A DNA stretch of 64,000 bases from a phage: sequence record PZ027503.1. One strand, 5' to 3'. Under the pieces are notes generated by a model, which worked only from the letters and a program-made list of their open reading frames with translations, did no database searches and was not told where the DNA came from. Both the position numbers and the translations under genes were made by a program. Of the stretch, positions 1 to 45,533 are shown piece after piece (the first letter of the stretch is position 1; each line of letters starts with the position of its first letter).

Positions 1-149
1 TGCTTCAATACAGTAATATACGACTCACGACGCGGAGAAAACGAAAATGAACCTTACATTGAAATTTCTAAGAACAAAGGTCAATGTATTTGTAAGAACT
101 GTGCAGTAGCTATTAAGGAGGTTGTAAATGAAAACGCTTGGGACCAATG
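1..149 (+). CDS. 3' end of an upstream gene (Cys-rich C-terminus, partial at window edge)
   Basis: Frame 1 is open from the window edge to TAA at 147-149; contains CxC..CKNC; overlaps next start by 22 nt. Confidence 0.3.
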
Positions 150-319
150 AAACTGGCGAAATCTCTCTTCAAGAAGTGACAAACGACAAACTGATTAAGC
201 TACGAGACGTAGCTCGTGACCATCTTCAAGAATCTTTTAAAGAATACATGGAAGCACGAGATCGTGTCATCCAAATCCAACAGGAAATGATTAAACGCGG
301 GATTGTAGCCGACAGTTAA
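128..319 (+). CDS. hypothetical protein (63 aa)
   Basis: ATG preceded by AAGGAGG; ORF track. Confidence 0.5.
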   Translation: MKTLGTNETGEISLQEVTNDKLIKLRDVARDHLQESFKEYMEARDRVIQIQQEMIKRGIVADS

Positions 320-335
320 TATAACGGAGGGGAGA

Positions 336-899
336 ATGATTTATTATATTACTCCCTATCTGACAGGAAATATCGGCAAGGCTATCAATGAAGCCATTGC
401 CGTTCTTCCAGATGATAGTTGGGTGTGTTTAAGAGATACCGATACAATGTTCCTCCTACCTGATCAACCATCTATGCTTGAAGAGCTTGTTATGTCAAAC
501 CCACCTTTTGATGTAATAGGTGCAACTTGTAACAGGTTAGGCAGTGGTTATCAGCTTTTCTCTAACCAAATTAACGATGATCCAGATATTCTAAACCATA
601 TAGAATATGCTAAGATTGCAAGAGAATATCATAAAGTGAGTGTTGAAGAAGTTCCTTTCGGAACACCTCTGGCAGGTTTCTTTTTGCTTTTTAGAAAATC
701 CTTGTGGAATGAAATTCCTTTCGAAGAAAAATCTATCCAATTCGACTTAATTTTCTCTCGCACTTTACATGAAAAAGGAAAGAGGTTAGGATTGATGCGG
801 GGAATGTATCTATTTCACATTTACAGATTAGGTCAAACAAATCCTCAACGGTCTATACATCATTTATTACACTGTCACGATCACAGTAAAACTATTTAG
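336..899 (+). CDS. putative glycosyltransferase (GT-A-like, DxD-type motif LRDTDT)
   Basis: ORF with GGAGGGG SD; DTD motif and GT-A-like N-terminal pattern; weak. Confidence 0.4.
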   Translation: MIYYITPYLTGNIGKAINEAIAVLPDDSWVCLRDTDTMFLLPDQPSMLEELVMSNPPFDVIGATCNRLGSGYQLFSNQINDDPDILNHIEYAKIAREYHKVSVEEVPFGTPLAGFFLLFRKSLWNEIPFEEKSIQFDLIFSRTLHEKGKRLGLMRGMYLFHIYRLGQTNPQRSIHHLLHCHDHSKTI

Positions 900-907
900 G
901 AGAGAAA

Positions 908-1591
908 ATGGAAAATATTAAAATCGGAGTGGGTGTTATCACTGTAGGTGTCCGTCCACTTAAAGACTACCTTGTAACAGATCCACGTGCAGATTTTCGA
1001 GTATTCAACGATCCAGACCGTAAAGGTGTAGCTTATGCCAGGAATGAACTTATGCACCAGTTTTATGAAGAAGGTTATGATTATTGGTTTATTTTTGACG
1101 ACGATTGCTACCCAGTCATGGAGGGATGGGAAACATATTTTGTAGATCAAGCTGTCTCTGGAGGATGGGATTTCTTTGGTATGCCGGAGTACTTCAAAGA
1201 TAAAGTTGTTGGAAGCAAAGGAGAAGTTATTCTCTGGGAACTTGCAATGTGTCAATTTGCAATGTATTCTCGTGCCGTTGTTGAGAAGATGGGTTATTTC
1301 CGTCCTTACACTCATGGTTATGGTTTTGAAGATGCTGAATGGGGACACCGTTTACAAGCTGCTGGTTTGAATCATGGTATTCAGGCAACACCTTGTCCAC
1401 TTCGTATCATGGCTTATATCCACCCAGACGATGTTTTTGGAAACAATCCTATGCCTTTTGCTAATCTGACAAAAGAAGAGAAAGAAGCTGCTATCGGGAT
1501 TAACTGGGAAGAATATAAAACATCTTTAGAGGATATTAAAAATGGGAAAATCCGAATTTCCTATGAGGAGGCACTAGCACATGTCAAATAA
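908..1591 (+). CDS. glycosyltransferase family 2-like protein
   Basis: WFIFDDDCYP (DxD) and GYGFEDAEWGHR motifs typical of GT-A/GT2 enzymes; SD AGGAGAG. Confidence 0.55.
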   Translation: MENIKIGVGVITVGVRPLKDYLVTDPRADFRVFNDPDRKGVAYARNELMHQFYEEGYDYWFIFDDDCYPVMEGWETYFVDQAVSGGWDFFGMPEYFKDKVVGSKGEVILWELAMCQFAMYSRAVVEKMGYFRPYTHGYGFEDAEWGHRLQAAGLNHGIQATPCPLRIMAYIHPDDVFGNNPMPFANLTKEEKEAAIGINWEEYKTSLEDIKNGKIRISYEEALAHVK

Positions 1592-2528
1592 AAAATGGTC
1601 TAAACTAAAAATTGATGCAAAACCTCACAGCGGTTGTGACTATCATCGTATTGTTATGCCATTTAACAACCATAATCTTCAACCTAAGAAAGATGTTGTT
1701 GTGTTTAACCGTATCCACTCTAAAGGTGCAGAATACGTTTTATCTTTGAAACGTCAAGGTGTTAAGATTGTTGTAGATTTAGATGATTTCTACCAACTTA
1801 ATCCAGAACATTATTTAGCAAGTCTATACGAGTCAAACACTCATGCTATTGTAGCTATGGTTAAGCTTGCTGATGTGGTTATTGTGACTACAGAATATTT
1901 GGCATATAAGATCCGTCACTTAAATAGGAATGTTGTTGTGATCCGAAATGCACTTCCTTTTGATAGTGGACAATTCACTTTGTCAAATGATCGTTCATCC
2001 GGTACCCCTGTTGTATGGGCTGGCGGTGCTAGTCACGAACCAGATTTACGACTAGTCTCTAATACTTTCGATGATGAACTTCTTACTATTGCGGGATATG
2101 AAGCATCACAGAGCATCACGGGACAAGAATGGATTAAGATTCGCAGAAATTTACCAAATGCCAAATATAAAGCCGCTGTAAAAGATTTAGATAATTACAT
2201 GAGTGTTTACGAAAGTCATGCTATTGCTATAGCTCCTTTGGTAGATAATGATTTTAATAATTGTAAAAGTAATCTCAAAATCCTGGAAGCTGGAGCAAAA
2301 GGTATTCCAATTGTTTGTTCTAAGGTATTACCTTATTTTAACCCTGTAGATGCTCGCGCTGTTGCTTACGCAGAGAATAAAGCAGAATGGCATTACGAAA
2401 TTGTTAAGCTTCTTCGCAATCCAAACTATCGGGAAGATCGTGGTTTGTTCTTGGCGGAACATGTTCGAACACATTATAATCTGGCAGATGCAAACGAGTT
2501 GCGACGCCAGGTTATTGAAAGTTTGTAG
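1581..2528 (+). CDS. GT-B fold glycosyltransferase (paralogue 1 of tandem pair)
   Basis: C-terminal KSNLKILEAGAKGIPIVCS resembles GT4-type E-x7-E sugar-donor motif; N-terminus CDYHRIVMP shared with neighbour. Confidence 0.5.
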   Translation: MSNKKWSKLKIDAKPHSGCDYHRIVMPFNNHNLQPKKDVVVFNRIHSKGAEYVLSLKRQGVKIVVDLDDFYQLNPEHYLASLYESNTHAIVAMVKLADVVIVTTEYLAYKIRHLNRNVVVIRNALPFDSGQFTLSNDRSSGTPVVWAGGASHEPDLRLVSNTFDDELLTIAGYEASQSITGQEWIKIRRNLPNAKYKAAVKDLDNYMSVYESHAIAIAPLVDNDFNNCKSNLKILEAGAKGIPIVCSKVLPYFNPVDARAVAYAENKAEWHYEIVKLLRNPNYREDRGLFLAEHVRTHYNLADANELRRQVIESL

Positions 2529-2535
2529 GTGAAGT

Positions 2536-3480
2536 ATGGGACAAATAATTCTTGACAATCGTAACGGAATCAATTATAGTGTCTGCGATTTCCATAGGGT
2601 AGTGCTGCCTTACTCAAGGCAGTTCTCTTCACAACCTAAGCACAACGTTTTCGTTTTTAACGGGGTGCCAACAAAAGGTAAACAGGGCTTTTTAGCCCTT
2701 AAAAACCTAGGCTTTAAAATGGTTATGGATTTGGATGACTCTTTAGTTATTCCAAAAGGACACATGTTAGAAGGTATTTTTGAATCAGGTATTCGTGAAC
2801 ATTTAAAATGGTTTTTAGAGCACAGCGATCTTGTCACAACTACGACACCTGCTTTGCAAGTTGAACTTTCACAATACAATGATAATGTGCACATAATCCC
2901 TAATGGACTTCCTTACGATGAAGGTCAATTTGTGTTGACCCGTGATCGCTACTCCAAAACTCCATTAGTCTGGGCTGGAAGTGAAACACATAAACAAGAC
3001 TTGGCTATCTTGCCCGATTTTGGTAAAGATCTTACAATATGTGGTTTTCGTAGGGATTCTGAAGTTTTAAGTAGTCGTGAATGGTCTGTAATCAGAGAAA
3101 ATGTAGCACCAACTTGTGTTTATGAAGGTGTAAGACCATATGCCAACTACATGGAATCTTACGATGGTCATCAAATCAGTCTTGCGCCATTGATTGATAA
3201 CGTGTTTAATAATGCAAAAAGCAATCTTAAAATTCTTGAGGCAGGTGCTAAGGGTTTACCTTTGATCTGTTCTCCTCGTGAGAATTATCACACGCAAGAG
3301 TTTAAAGATTTGTTATTCTTTGCTGAAACACCTTCCGAGTGGAAAGATATTACGGAATACTTATTAAGTGCTCCCGATGTTTGCATGGAGAAAGGATTAG
3401 CATTAGCTAAGTATGTCAGGACTCATTATCACATTGATGTGTTGAATGAGCGTCGTAGACTTTTATTTGAGGAGCTATAA
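2536..3480 (+). CDS. GT-B fold glycosyltransferase (paralogue 2 of tandem pair)
   Basis: Same length and motifs as 1581-2528 (CDFHRVVLP, KSNLKILEAGAKGLPLICS); tandem duplication. Confidence 0.5.
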   Translation: MGQIILDNRNGINYSVCDFHRVVLPYSRQFSSQPKHNVFVFNGVPTKGKQGFLALKNLGFKMVMDLDDSLVIPKGHMLEGIFESGIREHLKWFLEHSDLVTTTTPALQVELSQYNDNVHIIPNGLPYDEGQFVLTRDRYSKTPLVWAGSETHKQDLAILPDFGKDLTICGFRRDSEVLSSREWSVIRENVAPTCVYEGVRPYANYMESYDGHQISLAPLIDNVFNNAKSNLKILEAGAKGLPLICSPRENYHTQEFKDLLFFAETPSEWKDITEYLLSAPDVCMEKGLALAKYVRTHYHIDVLNERRRLLFEEL

Positions 3481-3758
3481 TGATTAACACTTTTGATTTT
3501 GAATACACCACTCGTAACGGGAAAGCCTTAGTTGTGGAGGTGGATTACTATTATGAAGAGCCTAACCCGCTTTCTCGTGAAAGTGATTGGGATTACCACG
3601 GAGGGCTTTTAATTGACGGTATTCGTTTTTATGAAGGCTCTACAGAAGTTTTTGAAAAAGATTTAAATGTAACTGTAGCAGAAATTGCTTTCCAATTTAG
3701 AAAGCATATGGAAGAACTAGAAGCAGAATATATGATGGAGACTAACGAACCATTTTAA
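3480..3758 (+). CDS. hypothetical protein (92 aa)
   Basis: ORF with GAGGAG SD, start overlaps upstream stop (TAATG). Confidence 0.45.
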   Translation: MINTFDFEYTTRNGKALVVEVDYYYEEPNPLSRESDWDYHGGLLIDGIRFYEGSTEVFEKDLNVTVAEIAFQFRKHMEELEAEYMMETNEPF

Positions 3759-3770
3759 CAGGAGAACAAA

Positions 3771-5549
3771 GTGTCGCACATTATAACTAAATATGGATTT
3801 GATGTTGATCTTAGCAAGGAAGGGCATACAGGTTGTCCGCGCTGCATGAAAAATGGCAAGGATCGCTCTCGTAATAACCTGATGGTTTATGGATTAGATT
3901 CTAATGGAGAGCATAAAGGTGCTAAGTGCTTTGCGTGTGAATACACTATTCCTAGCGTAGAATGGTTACGAGAAAATGGTGAAGTTTTAGAAGAAGAGGA
4001 GGAGATTGTGGGTTCGGAATTTAATAAACAGATTCATCGTAAAATTGTTCAAGAAACATCAACCAACCCACGTGGTTATCGAGGCATTAAAGAAAAAGTT
4101 TCATCTTTCTATGGTGTTCGTTATGAATACCGTCAGGAAGGGGATCAGATGGTAGTAGAAAGTTGTTTATATCCGACTACTATCGGTAAAGAATTGGTTG
4201 GTTTTAAGCGTCGTATTCATCCTAAAGATTTCAGTAAACCTATTGGTCAAGTAGGTAAAGATGTAGATCTTTTTGGACAAATTCGTTTTGCAGACCGTTC
4301 TCATACTGTGGTAATTACAGGTGGTGAACACGATGCTCTGGCAGCTTATCAAATGTTGTCTGAAAACTTGGACAACAAATATGAACTTCCAGCAGTAGTT
4401 AGTGGCACAACTGGTGAAACCAGTATGTATAAACAAGTTCAGGCACAATATCCTTTCTTTGAAAAATTTAAGAAGATTATTGTTTGCATGGATAATGACA
4501 AAGCAGGTAATGAGGCATTTGAAAATATTGTTAAGGTGCTGCCCCGTAACAAAGTCTACCGTATGCAGATGGATCTTAAGGATGCCAATCAGTATCTGGA
4601 AGAAGGTCGTGCAAAAGATTTCGTAAAAGCTTTTTGGAGTGCTCGTCTATACACCCCAGCAGGTGTTTATGCTTCTAATGTCTTGTATGAAGCTGCATTA
4701 GAATGCTTGGAATCCAAGATGATTACCTTGCCTCCTTTTATGCGTGTTGCTGCAAATATGCTGGGTGGTGGTTTAGTAGAGGAAGAGATTACAGTGATCC
4801 TGGCAAAGACCAGTATCGGTAAAACTTTGATGGTGAACGAGATCACCAAACATATTATTGTTGCTCACCCAGAACATACCTTGGGTATTCTGTCCTTGGA
4901 AGCAACTTATAAGAAATATTCTCGTAACCTGTTGTCCTCGTTCCTGCATATTCCTCTACACAGGAAAACACCGGAAGAGAAATTTCAAATCTTGGAAGAG
5001 AATAAAGAAAAAATCCTAGATTTTTACGAAAGAGAAGATGGATCACCACGTTTTTATGTGTGTGATGATCGTGGAGCAGATGTGGAGTCTATCAAAGAAA
5101 AAGTTTTGGAGATGATCATCTATTTTGGAGTAACAATTCTTGTTATCGACCCTTATTCTGATTTGCTTTCTGGTATGGATGTTCAAGCCCAGGAAGAGTT
5201 AGCAACATGGTTGAAGCGCATCATGAAAGAGTACGCTATAACTATTATCGTCATCTCACACGTTAAGAAATCGGCTAATGGTGGCAATGAACACTTAACA
5301 GAGGACGATGCAATGGGTAGTAGTTTCTTGGCTAAAGGTGCTGGTATTACCTTGGCTTTGGAACGAGATAAAGCCGCTGAAGACCCTGTAGAACGCAATA
5401 CGACTCATTGCTTTATCCTAAAAAACCGTGAGTTCTCGGAAACTGGTCCGGCAGGGCAGTTTTACTATGACATTAGAACTGCAACTCTGCATGACAAAGA
5501 GCAGTATTTCAACAATCCTGCTAATTTGCCTACGGATAGCAACTATTAA
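3771..5549 (+). CDS. bifunctional DNA primase-helicase (T7 gp4-like)
   Basis: N-terminal Zn-binding CPRC..CFAC, TOPRIM-like VITGGEHDALAAY, DnaB-type Walker A LAKTSIGKT and Walker B LVIDPYSD; GTG start with AGGAGA SD. Confidence 0.85.
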   Translation: MSHIITKYGFDVDLSKEGHTGCPRCMKNGKDRSRNNLMVYGLDSNGEHKGAKCFACEYTIPSVEWLRENGEVLEEEEEIVGSEFNKQIHRKIVQETSTNPRGYRGIKEKVSSFYGVRYEYRQEGDQMVVESCLYPTTIGKELVGFKRRIHPKDFSKPIGQVGKDVDLFGQIRFADRSHTVVITGGEHDALAAYQMLSENLDNKYELPAVVSGTTGETSMYKQVQAQYPFFEKFKKIIVCMDNDKAGNEAFENIVKVLPRNKVYRMQMDLKDANQYLEEGRAKDFVKAFWSARLYTPAGVYASNVLYEAALECLESKMITLPPFMRVAANMLGGGLVEEEITVILAKTSIGKTLMVNEITKHIIVAHPEHTLGILSLEATYKKYSRNLLSSFLHIPLHRKTPEEKFQILEENKEKILDFYEREDGSPRFYVCDDRGADVESIKEKVLEMIIYFGVTILVIDPYSDLLSGMDVQAQEELATWLKRIMKEYAITIIVISHVKKSANGGNEHLTEDDAMGSSFLAKGAGITLALERDKAAEDPVERNTTHCFILKNREFSETGPAGQFYYDIRTATLHDKEQYFNNPANLPTDSNY

Positions 5550-5568
5550 GGGCTTCGGCCCTTTTATT
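5549..5568 (+). terminator. rho-independent terminator after primase-helicase
   Basis: AGGGC-TTCG-GCCCT hairpin followed by TTTTATT. Confidence 0.5.
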
Positions 5569-5579
5569 AAAAATACCTG

Positions 5580-5608
5580 TTGACAACTTTGCGGAAGGGA
5601 CTTATACT
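5580..5608 (+). promoter_or_regulatory. sigma70-like promoter
   Basis: TTGACA - 17 nt - TATACT, upstream of ATG at 5641. Confidence 0.55.
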
Positions 5609-5640
5609 TGTCTCATCAACCAAACAAGAGGAGAAGTAAA

Positions 5641-6072
5641 ATGCGTATGACAATCGATCTGAATGCAAAAGTTAAAGCTGCTGGTGCTCTGGGTGCTGGT
5701 GTTATTAAACACAAACAAGCGTTGGCATTTGCCATCCCACATATGATTGTTGAGGATCATCCTGAAGAGTTTGCTGTAAAAGTTGTTGAGAACAATGTTT
5801 CTGTTATTGAACATATCCCAACTGGACGTTCTTACCGTGTTGTTTCTTCTAAAGGTTTCCGTTTCGATGTAAGCCCTTCTTTCACAAAAGGTGCTGGTCG
5901 TAGTAAAGTGGGTATTCTTTCTTACAAATATTATATCGATAAAGTTGCAGATGGTGTTGCATTCTGTCGTGTAAGTGAAGGTAAAGTAGATATCATCTTT
6001 AAAAATACTAAAAACATGGTTATTTCTGATGATGGTAAAGTTGACCTCACTATTGAGTTCGCTAACAACTAA
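5641..6072 (+). CDS. hypothetical protein (143 aa)
   Basis: ATG with GAGGAGAAG SD; the track start at 5608 (TTG) lies inside the -10 element so the downstream ATG is preferred. Confidence 0.45.
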   Translation: MRMTIDLNAKVKAAGALGAGVIKHKQALAFAIPHMIVEDHPEEFAVKVVENNVSVIEHIPTGRSYRVVSSKGFRFDVSPSFTKGAGRSKVGILSYKYYIDKVADGVAFCRVSEGKVDIIFKNTKNMVISDDGKVDLTIEFANN

Positions 6073-6081
6073 GGAGGACTA

Positions 6082-6876
6082 TTGAGCAAGTTGAACATAC
6101 TTGATCAATATTACACTAACCCCGCTTATGCGGGGTTCTTATGTGATAAGATCAAAGAAATTTTTGGAGAGGAAGCTAACTACGTAGAACCATCTGCGGG
6201 AGAAGGAGCTTTCTCTTCTTGTTTTAAAAACATAACTTCTTTTGATATTGACCCTAAGTTTGAAGATTGTATTGAGGCAGATTTTTTAGCTCAATCTGTT
6301 GAGTCTGTTGGTAGTGTAACTGCTTTTGTCGGTAATCCTCCGTTTGGAAAAAATGCCAGTCTTGCCATTAAGTTCTTTAACCATTGTGCTGAAATGTTGG
6401 ATAACGAAGGTGGTATTTGTTTTATCTTGCCTCGCACATTTCAAAAAATCTTTTTTGCACACAAACTAAATCCCCACATGCATCTTCTTTACGAAGAAGA
6501 ATGTCCAAAAGGATCTTTTATTCTTCATGGAGAACCTTGGGATGTTCCTTGTGTATTCCAGATATGGATTAAACGCAACGAGAAGCGTTCTCCCGTTGTT
6601 TTAGGAGAGAATCGACTATTCGTATTAGGTAACAGTAAAGACTACGATATAGCCGTTAGGAGAGCGGGAGCAAGTGCAGGTAAAGTGTTATCAGAAGAAG
6701 ATTCTTTATCTGAAGCATCTACCTATTTTTTAAAAGCCTTGACTTCTAATCTTAAAACGCGTATCATTGAGGCTTACCCGTTACTTAAAGCTGAAGCTAG
6801 TAAAACTGCGGGAGTAAGAAGTTTAAGTTTAAAAGAACTTCAGTGGGTTCTGGAGAACATTAGAAAGGAGGAATAG
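6082..6876 (+). CDS. DNA N6-adenine methyltransferase (gamma-class motif order), orphan
   Basis: QYYTNP, motif I YVEPSAGEGAF, motif IV VGNPPFG in that order; no adjacent restriction endonuclease. Confidence 0.6.
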   Translation: MSKLNILDQYYTNPAYAGFLCDKIKEIFGEEANYVEPSAGEGAFSSCFKNITSFDIDPKFEDCIEADFLAQSVESVGSVTAFVGNPPFGKNASLAIKFFNHCAEMLDNEGGICFILPRTFQKIFFAHKLNPHMHLLYEEECPKGSFILHGEPWDVPCVFQIWIKRNEKRSPVVLGENRLFVLGNSKDYDIAVRRAGASAGKVLSEEDSLSEASTYFLKALTSNLKTRIIEAYPLLKAEASKTAGVRSLSLKELQWVLENIRKEE

Positions 6877-9473
6877 TGAGTAAGTTTACATGGGATATTG
6901 AAGCAAACGGATTGTTGAATAATGACACTATCGATTATTTAGCTAGTCCTTATCGTCTCAAAGACACATTTCAAATGCACTGTATTGTCTTAGAGAACCA
7001 TGAAACAGGAGAAATAGTAGCTTTCCACGATGGCCCTAAATACATCTTTGATGGGCGTCCTTATGAAGAGTCAGATGGTAAATACACATATGTTCTTAAA
7101 GAGTATGTGGCGCAAGATTACACACATTTTCAACTAAAAGATTTCCCAGACTTTATTAATCATGAAGGTTATTTTAAAGATAAGCCTGAATATCTGGTTG
7201 AAATGGCTGTGGCTCACAACGGTATCAACTATGACTGGTTGGCTACAAAACTGTTTTATGGTTTAGATTACAGTGTTAAATATAATACGTGGGGCAAAAA
7301 TAAGGTAAAACTTATTGACTCCTTGATTTTGAGTAAAGTGTTAAACCCAGATCGAAAGATTGAGGGCAAATCAGGACATAGCTTGGCAGCACTTTCTCGA
7401 AAGGCAGGTGGTGATGTAAAAATAGATTTCCGTAAAGAGATTCCAGAAGAAGATCGATTTAAGACTTTTGCTGCGGATATGCTTTATTACTGTATCTATG
7501 ACAACAAAGCCAATACGAGCGTATATAATTACCTTATGGAAGAATGGGGTGATTATGATAAATGGGAAGGTCCATTTGAACTTGAACAACGTGTAGCAGA
7601 CATTATTACACGCCAGGAACACCGTGGGTTTGCTTTTAACATGAAACAAGCAGAAGAGAACCTTGCTTTTTTGGATGCAGAAATGGAGCGTCTTCGTTTA
7701 CTCGTTGAGCCTATTTTGCCACCTAAACCAGCAACAAAAGGTTATCTTAAGGCTTTTATTCCACCTAAGTTGCAAATTAAAAAGAACTTAGAGCCAACTA
7801 ACCATATGATCAATTTTGCTAAGAAACATGATGGTCATTTGGAAGAGAGGGATGGAGATTGGTGGTTAGTGATGTTGGGGAAAGAATGGAAACTGCCAGT
7901 TGCAGCAGATGAACCTTTGTGTGATCCTAATATCCCTGCAACATTGAACGATACTACCCATATTAAAAACTGGCTTGTAGGATTAGGTTGGGTACCGTCT
8001 GAATATAAAGATAAAGACTTGACTCTTAAATCTGGCACCAAGATTAAAAAGAGCGAGGAAGAACTTCAGAAAGGTATTCGAGCTTACGTTGAGCAAACTC
8101 TGTCTTCTAATTTTTGTCAGGATCGTTGTGATCATCTGGAGTGCACACCGGAAACCTTGGAGAGGAAGATTCAAGAGCGTATAGCAAAAGGTAAGGGTCG
8201 CGGTCTTAAAGTATTGACTAACCCATGTTTTACCAAAGGTCAGGAAAAAGAAATCTGTCCTAACCTGCAAGCTTTAGGTGAGAAATTCCCTTATGCTACA
8301 CAGATTGTAGAATACTTAACGTATAAGCATCGTAGGAACTCTATTTTAGGCGGTGGTGCTGATTGGGAAGAAGATGAGGAAGATCAAGAATATGATAAAG
8401 GTTTCTTAGCCGCAGTAAGGGCGGATGGTCGTATTCCTACCCCAGCAGCTACATGTGATGCTGCAACCTCTCGTATGAAGCATAGGTCTGTAGCTAATAT
8501 TCCTCGTGTCACATCTTTGTTTGGATGGGAGATGCGTAACTTGTTTGGTGTAGAGGTTCCTAAGTACTTCCAGATTGGCTACGACTTCGACTCTTTGGAA
8601 GCAAAAATTGAATCACACTACTGTTGGCGGTACGAGCCGGAGCCACACGAATATTGTAACGCTCTGTTGTTAGAGAAACCTAACGATGTTCACACAATGA
8701 TGGCAAAACGTATCACTGAAACTATTGGACGTAAATTTGAACGTAGTCCTGCTAAATCTGTTAAGTATGGTATTACCTATGGTGCACAAGCCGACAAGGT
8801 TGCTAAAACAATTGGTAGCGACAAGTTTACAGGTCAATTGGTGTTCGATGCTTTCTGGGAAGCTGCATTCCCATTGGCGCGTCTTAAAGAACGTTTAAAT
8901 GATTTCTGGGTTAAGACTGGTAAACAATATGTTTTGGGTATTGACGGTCGTAAGGTTCCTACTCGTTCTGCTCACGCGATTCTTAACTCTCTGTTCCAAA
9001 GCGGTGGGGTTATCTGTGCTAAACGTGCAATGGTTATTTATGATGACATGATCGAAGAAGAAGGGCTAAGTGTTGACTTCTTTAAAGATGACTGGAAGAA
9101 TAAAGACTTCGTGCAACAAATGATTGCATATCACGATGAAGCCCAGCTTGAAGTTTCTCGTAACCTTGTAGAATTCAAATGGTTTTCACCTGAATCATTA
9201 GGTTGGAAGAAAGTAGACGATCCTGAAGAACAAAAGAAAATTGATAAAGAATGCCTTGCTAAAGTCGAAGAATGGAAGCATAATAAGGAAAAAGAGACAG
9301 GGCAAATTTGGGCTAACATTCATGAATCTCCCAAAGGTGGATGGTTTACAGCCTATAGTCGGGCAGGTGAACTTGCTGCTTTAGCTGTTACTAAGGCTGG
9401 AGAATTTTACAATCTTAATGTTCAGCTTACTGCTGGATATGACGTGGGGAATTCCTGGGCCAGTTGTCACTAG
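6876..9473 (+). CDS. family A DNA polymerase with 3'-5' exonuclease domain
   Basis: Exo I WDIEANGL; motif A-like GYDFDSLEAKI; motif B RSPAKSVKYGITYGA; motif C YHDE; GTG start with GGAGG SD. Confidence 0.85.
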   Translation: MSKFTWDIEANGLLNNDTIDYLASPYRLKDTFQMHCIVLENHETGEIVAFHDGPKYIFDGRPYEESDGKYTYVLKEYVAQDYTHFQLKDFPDFINHEGYFKDKPEYLVEMAVAHNGINYDWLATKLFYGLDYSVKYNTWGKNKVKLIDSLILSKVLNPDRKIEGKSGHSLAALSRKAGGDVKIDFRKEIPEEDRFKTFAADMLYYCIYDNKANTSVYNYLMEEWGDYDKWEGPFELEQRVADIITRQEHRGFAFNMKQAEENLAFLDAEMERLRLLVEPILPPKPATKGYLKAFIPPKLQIKKNLEPTNHMINFAKKHDGHLEERDGDWWLVMLGKEWKLPVAADEPLCDPNIPATLNDTTHIKNWLVGLGWVPSEYKDKDLTLKSGTKIKKSEEELQKGIRAYVEQTLSSNFCQDRCDHLECTPETLERKIQERIAKGKGRGLKVLTNPCFTKGQEKEICPNLQALGEKFPYATQIVEYLTYKHRRNSILGGGADWEEDEEDQEYDKGFLAAVRADGRIPTPAATCDAATSRMKHRSVANIPRVTSLFGWEMRNLFGVEVPKYFQIGYDFDSLEAKIESHYCWRYEPEPHEYCNALLLEKPNDVHTMMAKRITETIGRKFERSPAKSVKYGITYGAQADKVAKTIGSDKFTGQLVFDAFWEAAFPLARLKERLNDFWVKTGKQYVLGIDGRKVPTRSAHAILNSLFQSGGVICAKRAMVIYDDMIEEEGLSVDFFKDDWKNKDFVQQMIAYHDEAQLEVSRNLVEFKWFSPESLGWKKVDDPEEQKKIDKECLAKVEEWKHNKEKETGQIWANIHESPKGGWFTAYSRAGELAALAVTKAGEFYNLNVQLTAGYDVGNSWASCH

Positions 9474-9491
9474 TCTAACGTATTGTTTTAT

Positions 9492-9512
9492 AAGGGGCTT
9501 CTGCCCCTTTAT
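9492..9512. terminator. hairpin, weak terminator or attenuator after DNA polymerase
   Basis: AGGGGC-TTCT-GCCCCT followed by TTTAT; downstream gene starts 10 nt later. Confidence 0.3.
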
Positions 9513-9522
9513 AGGAGAAGAT

Positions 9523-9714
9523 ATGAGTTACGATTTAGATTGTTTTGGTATGCCTTACCTACCAGATGAATTTGAAGGTAAAGAAGAACGTGAATGGGAC
9601 GATGGGGATATCCGTTGTTGGTCTTGTGGTAAAGATATGTCTTATGAACAACATATGCACAATGATGGTTTCTGCATACATTGCTATAATGAAATTGATC
9701 TGGAGGAAGATTAA
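9523..9714 (+). CDS. small zinc-ribbon protein (63 aa)
   Basis: ATG with AGGAGAAG SD; CWSCG..CIHC; the longer track ORF from 9418 overlaps the polymerase and has no SD. Confidence 0.45.
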   Translation: MSYDLDCFGMPYLPDEFEGKEEREWDDGDIRCWSCGKDMSYEQHMHNDGFCIHCYNEIDLEED

Positions 9715-9881
9715 TGGGAAATGGTATCATGATTTGCTATAAAATTGTGCGTATTGTCGGAGACGAAATTACCACTCGGTATTTTATGATAGAGTCTCAA
9801 GCCGATGAGGTTTACAATGACTGGCTTGAAAAAGGTGGATACGATTTTGTATCTAAAGAAACTTTCCGTTTAGAAGTATAA
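9714..9881 (+). CDS. hypothetical small protein (55 aa)
   Basis: ATG overlapping upstream stop (TAATG); below the ORF-track length cutoff. Confidence 0.3.
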   Translation: MGNGIMICYKIVRIVGDEITTRYFMIESQADEVYNDWLEKGGYDFVSKETFRLEV

Positions 9882-9891
9882 GGAGAAAACA

Positions 9892-10110
9892 ATGCGTAAA
9901 TTAGTGAGCTTTAATGTTTCAATTCTTGTTGATGAACAAAATGAAGATGTTATTAAAGGTCTTGCAAATAAGATTGCAGGTGGAATGACGGAAGCTGAAG
10001 TGTGGGAAGAATGTGCTCGACTTTATGAGGAAGGTGTTATTGAGGTCTTGGGGGATGAGATTAATATGGACGATGTTGTAAAAGTAACTGTGGAGCGTAT
10101 CAATGACTAA
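9892..10110 (+). CDS. hypothetical protein (72 aa)
   Basis: ATG with AAGGAGAAAA SD. Confidence 0.45.
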   Translation: MRKLVSFNVSILVDEQNEDVIKGLANKIAGGMTEAEVWEECARLYEEGVIEVLGDEINMDDVVKVTVERIND

Positions 10111-10696
10111 ATCAAAACAAATCAATATTGCCAAAGAAATTCTTACCGTATTAAAGATCGCTGATCCTAATTCTGTCTTGGCTGGCGGTGCTGTTCGTGA
10201 TTGGCGTATTCTTGATATTGCTGGACGTGATCTGGATTTCTATACATCCCTTCCTGCACATCGGACTGAAGAACAAATACAAGGATTAATTGCATCTGCT
10301 TTAATGGGAACCAATATTCGTAAACTAGGAAACAAAGAGGCTTCTGACAATTATGAAGGTGTTACTGGTCTTAAACACGTTTTTGAGTTTGAACGTGATG
10401 GTCAGCTTTGCAACCTTATGATTATGGAACCAAGCGTAATGACAACCTTTCTAAATGAGTTCGATCTGTCCATCTGCCAGGCTGCATTTGATGGGAAGGA
10501 TTGTTATTATTCTAAAGATTTTGAAACAACCTTGGAAACAGGGATCTGCTTCTTGCACAAAGACGTTAGAGAAGATGCCAAACACGTTATTAAAATTGCT
10601 ACACGTTTCCCATATCTTCGTTTTGTGAAAGAGGTTAAGGTTCCACGTCCACCTCAAGTAGATACCAGATTGGAAGAAGATGATATTCCTTGGTAA
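10103..10696 (+). CDS. minimal Pol-beta superfamily nucleotidyltransferase (CCA-adding / poly(A) polymerase head-domain type) with acidic SSB-tail-like C-terminus
   Basis: LAGGAVRDWRILDIAGRDLDFYT matches the GGxVRD...DxD catalytic signature of CCA/PAP enzymes; ends EEDDIPW. Confidence 0.55.
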   Translation: MTKSKQINIAKEILTVLKIADPNSVLAGGAVRDWRILDIAGRDLDFYTSLPAHRTEEQIQGLIASALMGTNIRKLGNKEASDNYEGVTGLKHVFEFERDGQLCNLMIMEPSVMTTFLNEFDLSICQAAFDGKDCYYSKDFETTLETGICFLHKDVREDAKHVIKIATRFPYLRFVKEVKVPRPPQVDTRLEEDDIPW

Positions 10697-10703
10697 TTAA
10701 AGC

Positions 10704-10733
10704 TTGACAATATTAAACATTTTATGATAGGAT
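10704..10733 (+). promoter_or_regulatory. sigma70-like promoter (TTGACA-N18-TAGGAT), nearly leaderless relative to the ATG at 10742
   Basis: Perfect -35 hexamer, 18-nt spacer, TAGGAT; same motif recurs at 52898-52927 and 53485-53514 on the minus strand. Confidence 0.5.
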
Positions 10734-10741
10734 AGCATTCA

Positions 10742-11134
10742 ATGACTGAACGTTCTAAGATAGCTGTTGAAACTGTTTATGGAAACTATACCAGTTTGAC
10801 ACTAGTTGAGAAAAATGTTGTAGGTCTTGACAACTCTTTTTATTTTCAAATTTTGGTTATTCAAGGTGGAAACAAGAAGCTAACTGCTCGTGTTGAAACA
10901 TCTGAAATAATTGAAACCACTGTTACAAACAAAGAATTCATTTCACTGCAAGATACAATCCGAAACGTTATAGACGAAGAAGGCAAAGCTGCCACAATTA
11001 AACTCGGAGGTTTTCCAGTGCAAATAGTTCATTTCCCTAATGGTGAAATTGGAGTTGGAATAGGTAAAGGTAAATACCTGTTAGAGCAAGATGATATGGA
11101 AAGACTCCGCTCTTTCTGTGCAAAATTAATGTAA
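10742..11134 (+). CDS. hypothetical protein (130 aa)
   Basis: ORF track; start immediately after promoter. Confidence 0.45.
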   Translation: MTERSKIAVETVYGNYTSLTLVEKNVVGLDNSFYFQILVIQGGNKKLTARVETSEIIETTVTNKEFISLQDTIRNVIDEEGKAATIKLGGFPVQIVHFPNGEIGVGIGKGKYLLEQDDMERLRSFCAKLM

Positions 11135-11150
11135 TGTAGAGGAGATAATA

Positions 11151-12038
11151 ATGTCCGTAATTAATACTGAAACTGATCGTAAAGGCAAAACCGTAACTTA
11201 TGCAACTGGTATCGTAGACTACGTTAAACTGGATAAATTCGCTGAACCTAAAACTTTTCATTGGGAAGGAAAAACGATTGTTTCAACTCACCGAGCTTCT
11301 CTTGTTCTGAAAGAGAAAGGTGCTAAACCAGATGAGAAAGGTGTTTGGATTTCTCTTGGTGACATTGAACTGAAAGAAGGTTATGAAAACCTGCAAGTCA
11401 AAGAAGGTGATAATTGGATCACTATTGAAAAAGGTGTAGAAGTAAGTATTGATATTGATCGCGTTGATAATAAAGGCGGTAAAACTTACTACAATACTAA
11501 AAAATCTCGTATTACAGTATTGTCTACCGATGGTGTTCAGAAGTCTAACAAATCTTCTGGCAATAAAGGTTCCAACGATGCTGCTCCTAAGCAGTCCTAT
11601 AAAAAACGTGATACTGTAGGTCTGGAAACTGGTCACGCAGTAAATGGTGCACTGGAACTGATTCGTAATGGTGTTAAAGGTGATGCTTTCGATATCGCTG
11701 GGGTTGTTCAATCTGCAACTGTCACGCTGAAATCGGAAATTGCTGAATCTCGTGGCGTTGACATTAATGATTATGATCTTGGGGCATCTGTTGGTCACGC
11801 TATCCTCAATGCTTGTAAAGACCATACCATTAAGACTGTATCTGTAGAAGATTTGATTGACTCTGCTCGTAAAGTTCTAGCTTTGTCTGATAAAGTTGCT
11901 GCTGCCATTCGTGGTTCCGCAGAACAACCTAAGAAAGAAGAGAAGAAAGAAGTTAAAAAACCTGAACCACAACCAGAACCAACTCCAAGTAATCAAGAAG
12001 AACCTCCAATGGACTTCGATGATGATATTCCATTCTGA
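11151..12038 (+). CDS. ssb: single-stranded DNA-binding protein
   Basis: C-terminal PPMDFDDDIPF acidic tail matching the E. coli SSB tail as recalled; Gly/Ser-rich linker; SD GAGGAG. Confidence 0.8.
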   Translation: MSVINTETDRKGKTVTYATGIVDYVKLDKFAEPKTFHWEGKTIVSTHRASLVLKEKGAKPDEKGVWISLGDIELKEGYENLQVKEGDNWITIEKGVEVSIDIDRVDNKGGKTYYNTKKSRITVLSTDGVQKSNKSSGNKGSNDAAPKQSYKKRDTVGLETGHAVNGALELIRNGVKGDAFDIAGVVQSATVTLKSEIAESRGVDINDYDLGASVGHAILNACKDHTIKTVSVEDLIDSARKVLALSDKVAAAIRGSAEQPKKEEKKEVKKPEPQPEPTPSNQEEPPMDFDDDIPF

Positions 12039-12071
12039 TCTTATTGATCTATAAAGAGTTTTTATAAAAGA

Positions 12072-12100
12072 AAGGAGCCAAATGGCTCCTTTTCTTATTT
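12072..12100. terminator. bidirectional rho-independent terminator between convergent operons
   Basis: AGGAGCC-AAAT-GGCTCCT hairpin with T-tracts on both strands. Confidence 0.55.
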
Positions 12101-14767
12101 ATAACCCGAAGGAATATTGTTATAATCAGAAAGTTTTGTGCAATACCTGAATAGGTAACTATTAGCTACTCCGCCTAATGTATTTGTTAATGTTGTTCCT
12201 GTTCCTGTAAGATTTGTGCATCCACTAAAGAAAGAAGATAATGCTCCACGTTTACCACAAACAGTTAACCCTGGGTTGTCATTAAAGATTTTATTAAAAT
12301 CTGTAAGTGCTAAACAACCTTGGAATGTAGCTGTTAAAGAGGTCACTTTCGTTGGAATATTATCAAACATTCCTGCTGGAACTTCTGCAAGAGAGGTGCA
12401 ATCTTTAAAGGTGTAAGAATATCTTGTAACTTTTGATAGATTTTTAAATAAATCTGAAGGAATAGATGTTAAAGATGTACAACCTTCAAACGTGCTTGAC
12501 ATTGTTGTCATTGAAGGAAATAAAGCATCACTGAATAATCCTTCAGGGATAGCTGTCAAACTTGTACAGCCAGAGAAGATACCACTTATAGATGTTCCGG
12601 TGTAAGATGTGTTACTAAAACAATCAGAAGTTATTCGTCTTAAGTTAGCACAACCTTTTAAGAATTGTGAGGCTGGGCTTGTAGAATAACCAATTCTGTT
12701 GCCGCCCCATAATTCTAAAAGATCTGGATTTGCTTCCATAGACACATCAACACTATTCACTACTGAAGCACTTGCAAATTCAATAGCCAGTCTATATTCT
12801 CCTGCTGGATAACTATCCACTGTAGAGAAAGCTTTATTTCTAAATATTACTTTATTTGAAGGTATTACAACGTCATCCACCTTAACTACAAAGTTAGCTG
12901 GTGTGACAGTACCCGATAAAATTGGGAACGTAATTGCCCCATCTGCCGAGTGGTTGAAATATCCGTTTAGAACCGTTAAACTACTACTCGGAGATGGAGC
13001 TAACTCCTTTCCCGCAACAGCGTTCACCGTTAAATAAGAACTATCAGAAGCGGTAACAACACCTTGATATGTAGCTGTGCAACCAATTCTACAACCACCA
13101 TCACCAACACCAGTTATTACACCAGTTGTAGGATCTACTGTAGCAACATTAGGATCTGTAGTTGTATACTCAACAACCATACCAGGTAAGCTTGCTGCTC
13201 CTGTTGGCGTTATTTCTGCTACCATTGTTTGTGTTGTTCCTACATCCATCGCAGATAAGCTAGGGGTGTAAACACTCAATGTTGAAGCATATCCTCCAGA
13301 GGTATCTGATAAAGTTGTTCCTTCAGCGTTTAAGGCTGTCATACCTGCATCAAAACCACCTTCTGCATGGAAAGTCATTAAACCAGTAGATGATATTGTC
13401 ATGTTTGCAGGGGCAGAAGAAGTGTATTTAATATTGAAAAGTTTACCTCCTTCTGGGCTAACAGAATGTGTCAACTGTTTAGTTCCACCTACAATACAAA
13501 TTCCTAAAGAATCTGTAGTTAAGCCAGTTGCCAGAACATCCCCCGTAATCACGGAGCTTGCTATTGGTGTGAATTTATTATAGTTTAGACCACTATTGAA
13601 CAGATACGAGGCTTTCCCATCTTTCCAAATACCGGAATAATACATATCCCCGTTATAAACGAAAAAGGTTCCTTGATAACCTAATTGGTTAGTAATATCC
13701 ATATTCAACGTATGAACGCTTGTGAGCTTGTTTATATCCCAGGAACCCACTCCTTCAGGTTTAACTGGTTTTCCCACTTGGAGTGGATCTCCGCTCGCAG
13801 AATCATATCCCAAACCTAAGTTTGCAGTGTAGTTCTTACCAATAGCCCACAAGGAATTATTGATCCCAACGAAAAAAGAGTGGCGGCTTGGTGGAAATTT
13901 CCATGTTGAGAAACCTGCTGCAAAGGTGTCCAGTTTAGTGTAGGTTGTTTCTGTATTAGATCTAACATATAAGTAGTTTACTGTACCCGCGCCACCGGAG
14001 GTATCTCCTACAACTATTGTCTGGGAAACTGTATTGATGTAATCTTTGACATACACTGTTTCAGTAGTGGATATCGTGGCATTGACAAAAGCGGTTGTTG
14101 TGTTATTATTACCTGCTAAACCTTTACTAGCTCCACAAACACGCAAGGTTCCCGCATTGTTGACATAAGAGCATTGGTTATAACCTGCATCAAAAGCAAC
14201 TGCTGAACTTGTTATCTGACGGGGAGTAGAAACTTCGTTAGTAGTGCTTGCACCTAAACTGCCTACTGTGTTTTGACCCGATCCATAAAGAACACCGCTA
14301 TTCATTAACCAAAGAGTATTGTTATACCCTCCTTTAACCTCTTTAAGATTGGCTAAAGAGATAGTCCCTGTTATTACAGATGGAAAGCTGGTCCAAGTAG
14401 TTACACATGCATCCGTACCACCTGCTGCTATAGATCCTACCAACCCTGCTGTCAATCCTGAATATTGCCATCCCCCGCTGTTAGTTTTAATAACAAAACA
14501 ACGATCTGCGGTAAACACATCCGCTACTACAGTAGAAGCTAAGTGGAAATTATTGAATCGTGCACTACGAGTTCCATCTGCAATCTCACCAAAAAGGTTT
14601 GCGCCTTGAGTAAACAATCTACCATCATTAAGCAAAATTGCTAAACTGCTGTTAGAATTACCAGCATTATCTGGGTAATCTAAAGTGATTACTTTTTTAA
14701 CAATACCCGCTGGCAGAGGAACGACACCAGTGCTGGTCATAATAGTAAATATTGGAATTGGAAACAT
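12095..14767 (-). CDS. tail fiber / receptor-binding protein with C-terminal BspA-type leucine-rich repeats
   Basis: 890 aa; repeated FxGCTSLTxIPxxLF units (FSGCTSLTAIPEGLF, FEGCTSLTSIPSDLF, FKDCTSLAEVPAGMF, FSGCTNLTG) near the C-terminus. Confidence 0.7.
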   Translation of the reverse strand: MFPIPIFTIMTSTGVVPLPAGIVKKVITLDYPDNAGNSNSSLAILLNDGRLFTQGANLFGEIADGTRSARFNNFHLASTVVADVFTADRCFVIKTNSGGWQYSGLTAGLVGSIAAGGTDACVTTWTSFPSVITGTISLANLKEVKGGYNNTLWLMNSGVLYGSGQNTVGSLGASTTNEVSTPRQITSSAVAFDAGYNQCSYVNNAGTLRVCGASKGLAGNNNTTTAFVNATISTTETVYVKDYINTVSQTIVVGDTSGGAGTVNYLYVRSNTETTYTKLDTFAAGFSTWKFPPSRHSFFVGINNSLWAIGKNYTANLGLGYDSASGDPLQVGKPVKPEGVGSWDINKLTSVHTLNMDITNQLGYQGTFFVYNGDMYYSGIWKDGKASYLFNSGLNYNKFTPIASSVITGDVLATGLTTDSLGICIVGGTKQLTHSVSPEGGKLFNIKYTSSAPANMTISSTGLMTFHAEGGFDAGMTALNAEGTTLSDTSGGYASTLSVYTPSLSAMDVGTTQTMVAEITPTGAASLPGMVVEYTTTDPNVATVDPTTGVITGVGDGGCRIGCTATYQGVVTASDSSYLTVNAVAGKELAPSPSSSLTVLNGYFNHSADGAITFPILSGTVTPANFVVKVDDVVIPSNKVIFRNKAFSTVDSYPAGEYRLAIEFASASVVNSVDVSMEANPDLLELWGGNRIGYSTSPASQFLKGCANLRRITSDCFSNTSYTGTSISGIFSGCTSLTAIPEGLFSDALFPSMTTMSSTFEGCTSLTSIPSDLFKNLSKVTRYSYTFKDCTSLAEVPAGMFDNIPTKVTSLTATFQGCLALTDFNKIFNDNPGLTVCGKRGALSSFFSGCTNLTGTGTTLTNTLGGVANSYLFRYCTKLSDYNNIPSGYK

Positions 14768-31571: not shown

Positions 31572-32044
31572 TAAATAACTCCTGCTAAAACTAAGCTACC
31601 TGTCCAAGTTGCTCCATTATCATAACTGATAAACTCAAAAGTGTCTGTTGCACCTTGACGATAACTCAAAACTGGGGGGCGACCAAAACTCCATTTTACA
31701 GAAGAAGGCCATACGACTTTATTTGCACCACTTCCTTGACGCAAAGCTAAAGTAAAGTTTAAAACTGCATTTGTTGCTACTGGAATATTAGTAAAACTAA
31801 TTGTGCACGTTGCAGAAGATAAAGTTGCAGAAAAATATTCTGCTGAACTAATATCTAATGCCAAGGTGCTAGTTACTGTTCCCCGTGCATTCAGACGGTT
31901 TCTAGTTACCCCTGCACCACTCAACAGCACTTTCAAAGAAGTTTTCTTTGTTATTCCAGCCTGATCTGTTACAAAGAAATCTGTATCAGACACAGAGGTT
32001 GTTTGTGTAAGATCAGAAATTTTGATCGTAGTTAAATCTGCCAT
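31571..32044 (-). CDS. hypothetical tail/baseplate protein (157 aa)
   Basis: ORF track; start/stop overlap with neighbours. Confidence 0.45.
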   Translation of the reverse strand: MADLTTIKISDLTQTTSVSDTDFFVTDQAGITKKTSLKVLLSGAGVTRNRLNARGTVTSTLALDISSAEYFSATLSSATCTISFTNIPVATNAVLNFTLALRQGSGANKVVWPSSVKWSFGRPPVLSYRQGATDTFEFISYDNGATWTGSLVLAGVI

Positions 32045-44396: not shown

Positions 44397-44415
44397 TTAA
44401 TTTAATCTCCTAAGA

Positions 44416-45531: not shown

Positions 45532-45533
45532 GA

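Follow-up and report, generated by a model that had tools for sequence, protein, structure and literature searches.

A rhamnose-associated glycosyltransferase cluster in phAPEC8-like phages and its possible role in virion protein glycosylation

The glycosyltransferase cluster

The stretch of phage DNA analysed here (64,000 nucleotides of sequence record PZ027503.1, hereafter the window, to which positions refer unless another record is named) carries near its start four co-oriented glycosyltransferase (GT) genes, GT1 to GT4, at the place and on the strand where the initial annotation had put them (Table 1). Over its first 6 kb, the window shares 99.6% identity with Escherichia phages dw-ec and ETEC-TG and 99.0% with phAPEC8, and by this nucleotide identity its source belongs to Phapecoctavirus, that is, to the phAPEC8-like myoviruses of the subfamily Stephanstirmvirinae, for which the taxonomy of the matching records gives a strictly lytic lifestyle. 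The four genes are already named glycosyltransferases in the RefSeq records of the genus, so that the genes themselves and their generic annotation are known, and a role in DNA glycosylation, at odds with phenotypic data, has been published as a speculation. Two aspects are new: comparison of sequences indicates that the GT genes are co-inherited with rmlC and rmlD in the phAPEC8/phi92 lineage, and that a set consisting of two GT-A genes and one GT-B gene (GT-A1/GT-A2/GT-B) forms a conserved mobile module within the morphogenesis operons of many phages. Taken together, the mobility of the module, its placement in morphogenesis operons and its co-inheritance with rmlCD make the particle a likelier target than DNA, and we propose, with moderate confidence, that the four-GT cluster works in the cytoplasm and attaches, in several steps, a rhamnose-containing glycan to one or more proteins of the virion.

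The four open reading frames (ORFs) are spaced by -11 to +8 nt, each with a good ribosome-binding site before it. PHROG profiles assign all of them to glycosyltransferase families, with E values from 1e-78 to 1e-148, and the support from Pfam is weak but consistent, the gathering score being reached only by GT4 among the four. No NCBIfam model matches any of the four proteins. Because searches of the PDB sequences with each GT and with the family profiles returned no meaningful match, structure prediction and fold comparison were needed; they were run for GT1 and GT3 and gave a GT-A fold and a GT-B fold, respectively. The profile searches and structure predictions that the initial annotation had proposed thus confirm two GT-A-type and two GT-B-type glycosyltransferases.

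GT1 matches PHROG 14179 'glycosyltransferase' (8.5e-113) and no Pfam or NCBIfam model. Both aspartates of its RDTDT motif (D34 and D36) are invariant across 21 homologues, and the best 50 PDB fold matches of its AlphaFold2 model (pLDDT 93) are almost all GT-A enzymes, with TM-scores of ~0.5, among them hyaluronan synthase, ppGalNAc-T2, LH3/COLGALT1, SpsA and RmlT. The model confidently predicts a minimal, single-domain GT-A fold with a DxD motif. GT2 matches PHROG 2456 (1.5e-78), and its Pfam matches (TAGT, Glycos_transf_2 and Glyco_transf_7C) are all sub-threshold, so that neither GT1 nor GT2 reaches a Pfam gathering score; its DDD motif (FDDDC), the PHROG match and the weak Pfam matches class it as a predicted GT-A glycosyltransferase. 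The two DxD-bearing GT-A-like genes recognised in the initial annotation are upheld by PHROG and, for GT1, by fold comparison. GT2 is a very acidic protein with an isoelectric point (pI) of 4.9, and GT1, GT2 and GT4 are all acidic (pI 4.9-6.0).

GT3 and GT4 match the same family, PHROG 7162 (1e-148 and 2.5e-145), and are 41% identical to each other over 303 residues (E = 3e-77), in agreement with the tandem paralogue pair first proposed from the letters. The motif that they have in common, NN(C/A)KSNLKILEAGAKG(I/L)P, was quoted at that stage as the mark of the pair and is present in both; it is the ordinary nucleotide-sugar-binding LEAxAxGxP motif of this superfamily. In GT3, L235, E236, G238 and G241 are invariant in 36 homologues, and Cys228 stands where EX7E has its first Glu. 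The Pfam family Glyco_trans_1_2 is matched by GT4 with 25.2 bits against a gathering score of 25, and Glyco_trans_1_4 is matched as well; both families are sub-threshold in GT3. The AlphaFold2 model of GT3 (pLDDT 94, pTM 0.91) has PglA, BshA, MshA and SdgB as its top Foldseek matches in the PDB (E = 3e-10 to 1e-9, TM-scores 0.6-0.65), with TarM and Gtf3 also among the top fold matches; these are enzymes of the GT4 type, an enzyme class that should not be confused with our gene GT4. In the BFVD collection of viral structures, the top matches are GT1-family (again the enzyme class) and CgeB/YkvP-like proteins of phages and giant viruses. From the model, GT3 can be assigned with confidence to the GT-B fold, GT4 type, with two predicted Rossmann-like domains.

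None of the four GTs, and neither the 92-aa ORF that follows them, contains a transmembrane segment (maximum of the Kyte-Doolittle 19-residue window, ≤1.65), and among these five ORFs no Pfam or PHROG match to the GtrA flippase, the GtrB bactoprenol glucosyltransferase or GtrC was found. The absence of a membrane partner, one of the observations made from the sequence at the outset, therefore holds for the cluster.

Rhamnose genes, related modules and genomic context

In the nearly identical genome of ETEC-TG, genes for RmlC and RmlD adjoin the ribonucleotide reductase genes nrdAB; rmlC and rmlD occupy 44224-45626 of record OR786310.1, outside the window and ~11 kb past its end. With 225 bits, RmlC is well above the TIGR01221 cutoff of 156, and RmlD, with 239 bits, exceeds the TIGR01214 cutoff of 224. 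An RmlA annotation is found in many records of Phapecoctavirus, and RmlA and RmlB have both been reported for phage ESCO5 but not for ESCO37. The phages matched by RmlC and by the GT-B protein belong to the same lineages and fall in matching identity bands, with ~65 records at ≥95%, ~65 phi92-like records at 60-80% and, in addition, Klebsiella relatives, for both genes; the two therefore look like parts of one co-inherited system. These genes make it likely that dTDP-L-rhamnose serves as the donor in at least one GT step. The initial annotation had suggested looking in the rest of the genome for genes of sugar-nucleotide synthesis or for a deoxynucleoside monophosphate (dNMP) hydroxymethylase: the former are present as rmlC and rmlD, and the latter was not found in the annotation of record positions 1-140640 or in targeted scans, the thymidylate-synthase homologue being of the ThyX type.

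A scan of IMG/VR recovered at least 565 viral contigs with GT-B relatives, and genes were called and clustered for 84 loci from other phages (L numbers denote individual loci); these were the matches of highest similarity, and many of them come from freshwater phages related to one another. A GT2-like gene adjoins the GT-B gene, in either order, at 49 of these 84 loci, and a GT1-like gene accompanies the GT-A2/GT-B pair at 19. At 50 of the 84, a recognised gene for the large terminase subunit (TerL) or the portal protein lies ≤6 kb from the module (median 2.7 kb). The arrangement seen in the window, beside primase-helicase and polymerase genes, is limited to Stephanstirmvirinae-like myoviruses (8 loci and 4 truncated ones). 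Elsewhere, the module follows directly 3' of the major capsid gene (L010, L030), overlaps the portal gene stop with its own start (L044) or stands between head and tail genes (L036, L046), and at most other loci it lies just upstream of terS/TerL. The median gap to flanking genes on the same strand is 8-9 nt, with many ATGA overlaps, which points to co-expression of the module with the late genes and not to an independent accessory (moron) cassette.

The duplication of the GT-B gene is found only in the phAPEC8/phi92-like group and in one 55%-identical group; a single copy is present in myovirus relatives (L015, L027, L028), in some Klebsiella phages and in all prophages, so that the duplication giving rise to GT3 and GT4 appears to be lineage-specific. 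The module is also present, at 38-51% identity, in Pseudomonas, Enterobacter and Serratia prophages and in many metagenomic phages, and the 'bacterial' GT3 homologues with 43-51% identity are located in prophages. In Pseudomonas silvicola, Enterobacter huaxiensis and Serratia sp. M24T3, a GT2 homologue (38-43% identical in P. silvicola and E. huaxiensis, the two in which identity was tested) immediately precedes the GT-B gene, and the pair sits between the lysis genes and terS/TerL, whereas in Pseudomonas alliivorans the complete trio of GT-A1, GT-A2 and GT-B comes after the major capsid gene with zero intergenic space. No base-modification gene was found in the flanks of these prophage modules (≤10 kb on each side), and replication is of the lambda type.

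Several further genes accompany the module, for sugar-nucleotide and sugar-tailoring enzymes of the kind usual in surface-glycan synthesis. A gene for an NAD-dependent epimerase/dehydratase occurs with it in the Enterobacter prophage (L005), in a myovirus relative (L027) and in Streptomyces phage Zuko; other companions are a hexapeptide acyltransferase, a PLOD-type GT (1.9e-23) and methyltransferases, one of which has a sub-threshold CmcI/rhamnosyl-O-methyltransferase-like match. Many freshwater IMG/VR contigs of ~30-35 kb (L051-L097), which stand for a large group of uncultured small phages, carry interchangeable cassettes of two or three genes after the GT-B gene and upstream of terS-TerL, namely an acyltransferase with a GT-A protein, an unknown 226-aa with an unknown 171-aa protein, a methyltransferase with a GT-A protein, a PLOD-type GT with a CmcI-like methyltransferase, or further GTs. 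By analogy, this swapping of cassettes resembles serotype-like glycan variation, or surface-glycan diversity.

On its 3' side, the cluster is followed by the 92-aa ORF, whose start overlaps the GT4 stop codon, and by replication genes (Table 1). Homologues of the 92-aa ORF (cluster c43) always lie between the last GT-B gene and the primase-helicase gene in phAPEC8/phi92-like loci and in the more distant myovirus relative L015; other small ORFs take this place in more distant relatives, and the prophage versions lack it. The 92-aa protein may be an accessory of the GT cluster. The order read from the sequence, in which the cluster lies upstream of and in the same orientation as genes for a primase-helicase, an N6-adenine methyltransferase and DNA polymerase, is borne out by Pfam and PHROG matches and by the annotation of matching records, the methyltransferase being a probable one: its best match is PHROG 5172 'unknown function', and no Pfam family scores above threshold (Eco57I, E = 0.017). 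A promoter and terminator scan of positions 1-12500, in which the counts of sites were not above those in shuffled controls, gave no terminator-like site between the GT cluster and the replication genes, nor any before 12070. A strong bidirectional terminator-like hairpin begins at that position, exactly where the replication block on the + strand and the tail-fibre block on the - strand converge. Farther along, a cluster of tRNA genes sits between the packaging genes and a + strand block close to the window end.

Other observations concern the region upstream of the cluster and the records related to the window. Upstream of the window, OR786310.1 (L001) has adjacent genes at 8937-10900 for a HAD-like hydrolase, a ComF-like phosphoribosyltransferase (PRTase_3, 1.7e-41) and a Macro-domain protein, a trio that could be a module of nucleotide, NAD or ADP-ribose metabolism or of counter-defence. 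'Tellurite resistance' genes of the TelA, TerD and vWA-TerF-like types (L001 14400-15512, L015 936-4749) are kept a few kb upstream of the GT cluster, also in the distant myovirus relative L015. Several records that are 98-99% identical to coliphages of the genus or to phi92-like phages are labelled Acinetobacter phage vB_AbaM_ABPW7, Campylobacter phages A110a and A145, and 'Dompiswa phage'; the hosts assigned to some of them look doubtful. Pseudomonas phage PsgM04F is a 79%-identical relative.

Table 1. Features of the window discussed in the text, with positions on its 64,000 nucleotides
Feature	Position	Strand	Product	Assignment and remarks
GT1	336-899	+	187 aa	Predicted minimal GT-A glycosyltransferase
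GT2	908-1591	+	227 aa	Predicted GT-A glycosyltransferase, FDDDC; conserved partner of the GT-B gene
GT3	1581-2528	+	315 aa	Predicted GT-B, GT4-like; copy one of the tandem pair
GT4	2536-3480	+	314 aa	GT-B; tandem paralogue of GT3
Small acidic ORF	3480-3758	+	92 aa, pI 4.2	PHROG 4240 (function unknown), 6e-33
Primase-helicase	3771-5549	+		Toprim and DnaB_C; Pfam/PHROG
N6-adenine methyltransferase (probable, orphan)	6082-6876	+	264 aa	VGNPPFGK motif; PHROG 799, 3e-10
Family A DNA polymerase	6876-9473	+		Annotation of matching records
Terminator-like hairpin	12070-12093			10 base pairs, T-runs on both strands
Tail fibre	14809-16833	-	674 aa	Several collagen-like G-X-Y runs, the longest of 11 triplets
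Ser/Thr-rich protein	31571-32044	-	157 aa	Baseplate/tail region; 27% Ser+Thr, richest stretch 14/30
tRNA genes	51352-53275	-	10 tRNAs	Two Met, Ile, Pro, Gln, Gly, Thr, Asn, Ser, Arg

Possible acceptors of the glycan

The proposal that virion proteins are glycosylated starts from what was observed, that is, the folds of the enzymes, the structure of the operon, the inheritance together with rml genes and the homologous modules in late or structural operons elsewhere. E. coli makes dTDP-4-keto-6-deoxyglucose via RmlA/B or RffH/G. The phage RmlC and RmlD would turn this intermediate into dTDP-L-rhamnose; one GT would then move the first sugar onto the acceptor, and the remaining GTs would extend or branch the glycan, with the GT-B pair probably responsible for two different linkages or sugars. 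A short glycan on capsid, decoration, tail or fibre proteins would result in a sugar-coated particle. What we infer in this scheme is which sugar is donated, in which order the steps run and, most of all, what receives the glycan. For soluble, late-expressed GTs that have no export partner and that are found also in temperate phages with canonical DNA, few substrates are plausible, and virion proteins are the obvious ones.

Within the window, two proteins stood out as possible acceptors when the structural proteins were surveyed for Ser/Thr-rich stretches, and neither is decisive. The tail fibre, which the initial annotation had named as an alternative target, indeed has a collagen-like character, with G-X-Y runs such as GPTGPQGAPG and KGDKGEKGDKGDKGDPGTNGTNGTDGTNGKDG; it is a candidate acceptor, although nothing links it specifically to the GTs. 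The second protein, of 157 aa, is the most Ser/Thr-rich in the window (Table 1).

Several points weigh against glycosylation of the virion. In the searchable literature, we came across no report of a glycoprotein in virions of the phAPEC8-like or phi92-like phages, nor any paper that deals with what these GTs do in Phapecoctavirus/Justusliebigvirus. In the window itself, the cluster adjoins replication genes and not structural genes. The carriers of the module have capsid proteins of the Gp13-like, HK97-type and Major_capside families, with no capsid family in common, and hence no conserved acceptor can be named. PglA, BshA and MshA, the structural neighbours of GT3, use lipid-linked or small-molecule acceptors, so that the fold is not specific for proteins. 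The 84 loci are the nearest relatives, with many kin among them, and the counts drawn from them are not independent. Finally, the stretch before terS also contains genes for DNA methyltransferases in the freshwater phages, and position alone therefore does not discriminate between protein and DNA as the target; we accordingly rejected the pre-terminase position as sufficient evidence.

DNA was the acceptor favoured by the initial annotation, which saw in the cluster a multi-step sugar modification directed against restriction, and Olsen et al. 2020 had speculated along the same lines that these phages rhamnosylate hydroxymethylated nucleotides (PMC7552041). The GTs would, in this case, put rhamnose or other sugars on a modified base of the phage DNA and so block host nucleases. 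The position of the cluster, directly before and co-oriented with the primase-helicase, the probable N6-methyltransferase and the polymerase and free of terminator-like sites up to 12070, speaks for DNA, as does that of the rml genes in a region of nucleotide metabolism beside nrdAB; late expression would also be compatible with post-replicative DNA modification, of which Mom of phage Mu is an example. GT2 shows weak local matches to TAGT (E = 1e-3, residues 32-68) and to PHROG 842, the T2/T6 beta-glucosyl-HMC-alpha-glucosyltransferase (7.6e-6, residues 32-70), which span ~37-39 residues round the DxD motif; however, the match to TAGT (PF20691) stays at 19.5 bits, below the gathering score of 27.5, the generic Glycos_transf_2 matches the same DxD stretch, likewise sub-threshold, and Glyco_transf_7C is sub-threshold too. 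Moreover, GT3 resembles enzymes of the GT4 type, with neither T4 AGT nor T4 BGT among its top 50 matches in the PDB or in BFVD, while the acidity of GT1, GT2 and GT4 also argues against DNA as their substrate. A hydroxyl handle on the base is likewise missing from view: the sole thymidylate-synthase homologue in ETEC-TG is of the ThyX type (Thy1, PF02511, 35 bits against a cutoff of 24.8; TIGR02170, 1e-7), and the annotation of record positions 1-140640, where many genes are hypothetical, together with targeted scans gave no ThyA-type hydroxymethylase, TET/JBP protein or C5-methyltransferase. No C5-methyltransferase was found among the three genes outside the window annotated as 'DNA methyltransferase' either, two of which have no Pfam match and the third of which matches Peptidase_S78_2, a phage serine protease family. 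The module occurs, furthermore, in temperate phages that have lambda-type or host-type replication and canonical DNA without a hydroxyl handle. The phenotypic data point the same way. In a collection of phages of avian-pathogenic E. coli, HincII cut the DNA of all except three Tevenvirinae (PMC10269720), and therefore that of Phapecoctavirus members ESCO5, 13, 25 and 37 and of the phi92-like ESCO9. The phi92-like phages of the BASEL collection, which carry an orthologous cluster (71% identity), were described by Maffei et al. as 'exceptionally susceptible' to restriction-modification 'despite a putative dTDP glycosylation machinery' (PMC8594841), and if the rml and GT genes do not serve in anti-restriction, as seems probable, this otherwise puzzling sensitivity falls into place. 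Our literature search returned no nucleoside analysis for Phapecoctavirus/Justusliebigvirus. With no hydroxymethyl route found, no membership of the GTs in a DNA-glycosyltransferase family and restriction-sensitive relatives, the anti-restriction proposal does not stand up well: protective hypermodification in the style of T4 is unlikely here, a sparse or sequence-specific modification of the DNA keeps a small probability, and sugar transfer to phage DNA as a whole appears to us improbable.

A target in the host is unlikely as well, if somewhat less so than DNA. The GTs could act on a lipid-linked precursor of the host envelope (enterobacterial common antigen (ECA), O-antigen or lipopolysaccharide (LPS) core), on another host glycan or on a host protein, and the phage might benefit by remodelling or shutting a receptor glycan, with superinfection exclusion and no loss of progeny to debris, or by disabling a host factor; RmlC and RmlD would also drain the dTDP-4-keto-6-deoxyglucose needed for ECA. 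Such a role is consistent with the closest structures of GT3, which include PglA (acceptor linked to undecaprenyl diphosphate), TarM (wall teichoic acid) and BshA/MshA (small molecules), and with the late regions of prophages, where 'moron' genes for lysogenic conversion are often inserted. In addition, the receptors of these phages are surface glycans, ECA/NGR and the LPS core (PMC8594841). In Burkholderia dolosa (L007, 3025-8440) and Trinickia symbiotica (L008, 4742-11026), a chromosomal GT-B homologue (41-45% identity) comes after an inverse autotransporter, an adhesin of the invasin/intimin type, and an unknown protein of 555-571 aa; this suggests that some members of the family modify a bacterial surface protein, and the locus may be one of adhesin glycosylation. 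However, the 555-aa Trinickia protein (571 aa in its Burkholderia counterpart) resembles neither GT1 nor GT2, and its Pfam search was uninformative, which leaves the adhesin context as no more than a hint. Against a host target also stand the lack of a flippase, polymerase, ligase or membrane partner and of membrane segments in the GTs, and the conservation of the module in phages that are strictly lytic. Translational coupling ties the module to capsid, portal and terminase genes, in place of a promoter and terminator of its own on either side, so that its products would appear only in the late phase of lytic growth, when remodelling of the surface would come too late. As remote as DNA is the idea that the product of the cluster is a free or nucleotide-linked oligosaccharide or glycoconjugate, perhaps with the role of a small-molecule effector, or that the cluster is a largely dispensable accessory cassette with no single defined acceptor. 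The fold matches do include GT4-type enzymes that glycosylate small molecules (BshA, MshA, trehalose synthases and sucrose-phosphate synthases), and the computation identified no acceptor; yet the three-gene module is strongly conserved over very different phages, consistently in morphogenesis operons, and no export genes or other biosynthetic partner genes accompany it.

Glycosylation of virion proteins thus accounts best, in our view, for the cluster in the window. Whether this extends to the module at large is a more tentative matter: the GT-A1/GT-A2/GT-B module, with its varying sugar-tailoring genes, may represent a so far unrecognised, widespread system that coats the virions of many phages of Gram-negative hosts with a variable glycan, which would contain rhamnose in the phAPEC8 and phi92 groups. 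If so, a phage 'glycan shield' would exist outside Actinobacteria and could affect antibody recognition, stability and interaction with host glycans, and the duplicated GT-B gene would add an extra branch in the phAPEC8/phi92 lineage. Virion glycosylation would then extend from actinobacteriophages to phages of Gram-negative hosts, and a gene module of hundreds of uncultured phage genomes would gain a function. Among coliphages of broad host range, those of the phAPEC8-like and phi92-like groups belong to the ones isolated most often, and they are candidates for therapy; a phage-made glycan on their particles would bear on immunogenicity, clearance in patients, stability and possibly adsorption to glycan-rich surfaces.

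Comparison with known glycosylation systems

The cluster differs from the GtrABC systems of O-antigen glucosylation, which consist of membrane proteins, none of which is found among the five ORFs here. With the T-even systems of DNA glucosylation and with TAGT, it has in common that soluble phage GTs of GT-A and GT-B folds are encoded among genes of DNA metabolism and that more than one transferase would act in sequence, and GT2 has its weak local TAGT and PHROG 842 matches; it differs from them in that no hydroxymethylase or TET protein was found, the matches are sub-threshold and confined to the DxD region, there is no fold preference for T4 AGT/BGT, and the genus is sensitive to HincII, with sister phages hypersensitive to restriction-modification. 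A further paper considered as a precedent (PMC8402811) concerns host lipooligosaccharide on a cystovirus envelope and was set aside as irrelevant.

A closer parallel is offered by mycobacteriophage Che8, the capsid proteins of which are O-glycosylated by phage-encoded GTs (Freeman 2023, as cited in PMC11256854 and PMC13445384). As far as these citing papers describe that system, it too employs several cytoplasmic phage GTs with no membrane export machinery, and relatives of the present module are placed in or next to structural genes. The two differ in their hosts, which are Gram-negative here, in the position of our cluster in the replication module and in its dedicated rmlC and rmlD, and in the present system the glycoprotein is a proposed one. 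Distant homologues of the GT-B proteins (~25% identity) are annotated GTs of Streptomyces and Arthrobacter phages, the sole actinophages among the GT3 matches listed, including that of Streptomyces phage Zuko, which is encoded together with the nucleotide-sugar epimerase directly upstream of the terminase gene; no Mycobacterium phage is among the GT3 matches listed by tblastn over 50,697 phage records (E ≤ 1e-5), and the search thus gives no sign of homology to the characterised enzymes.

Among eukaryotic viruses, the chlorovirus PBCV-1 (with the rhamnosyltransferase A064R and the glycans of Vp54) and mimivirus, with its fibrils, encode cytoplasmic GTs and rhamnose synthesis of their own, and giant viruses build rhamnose-containing, sometimes O-methylated capsid glycans without the host secretory machinery. 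GT1-family proteins of giant viruses are among the structural neighbours of GT3; this likeness is structural, and the hosts and the virion architecture are different.

The last parallel comes from a bacterial developmental system, the spore crust of Bacillus subtilis, and is drawn at the level of families and folds, with no orthology claimed. Formation of the crust involves the GT-A protein SpsA, the GT-B proteins CgeB and YkvP (PF13524) and SpsI-L, which are Rml enzymes. Our gene GT4 reaches the gathering score for the CgeB-type family Glyco_trans_1_2, the sole family for which any of the four GTs does so, dTDP-bound SpsA is among the fold matches of GT1, and CgeB/YkvP-like viral proteins are among those of GT3. 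By analogy, the two systems could be thought of as decorating a self-assembled protein shell with rhamnose-containing glycans in the cytoplasm.

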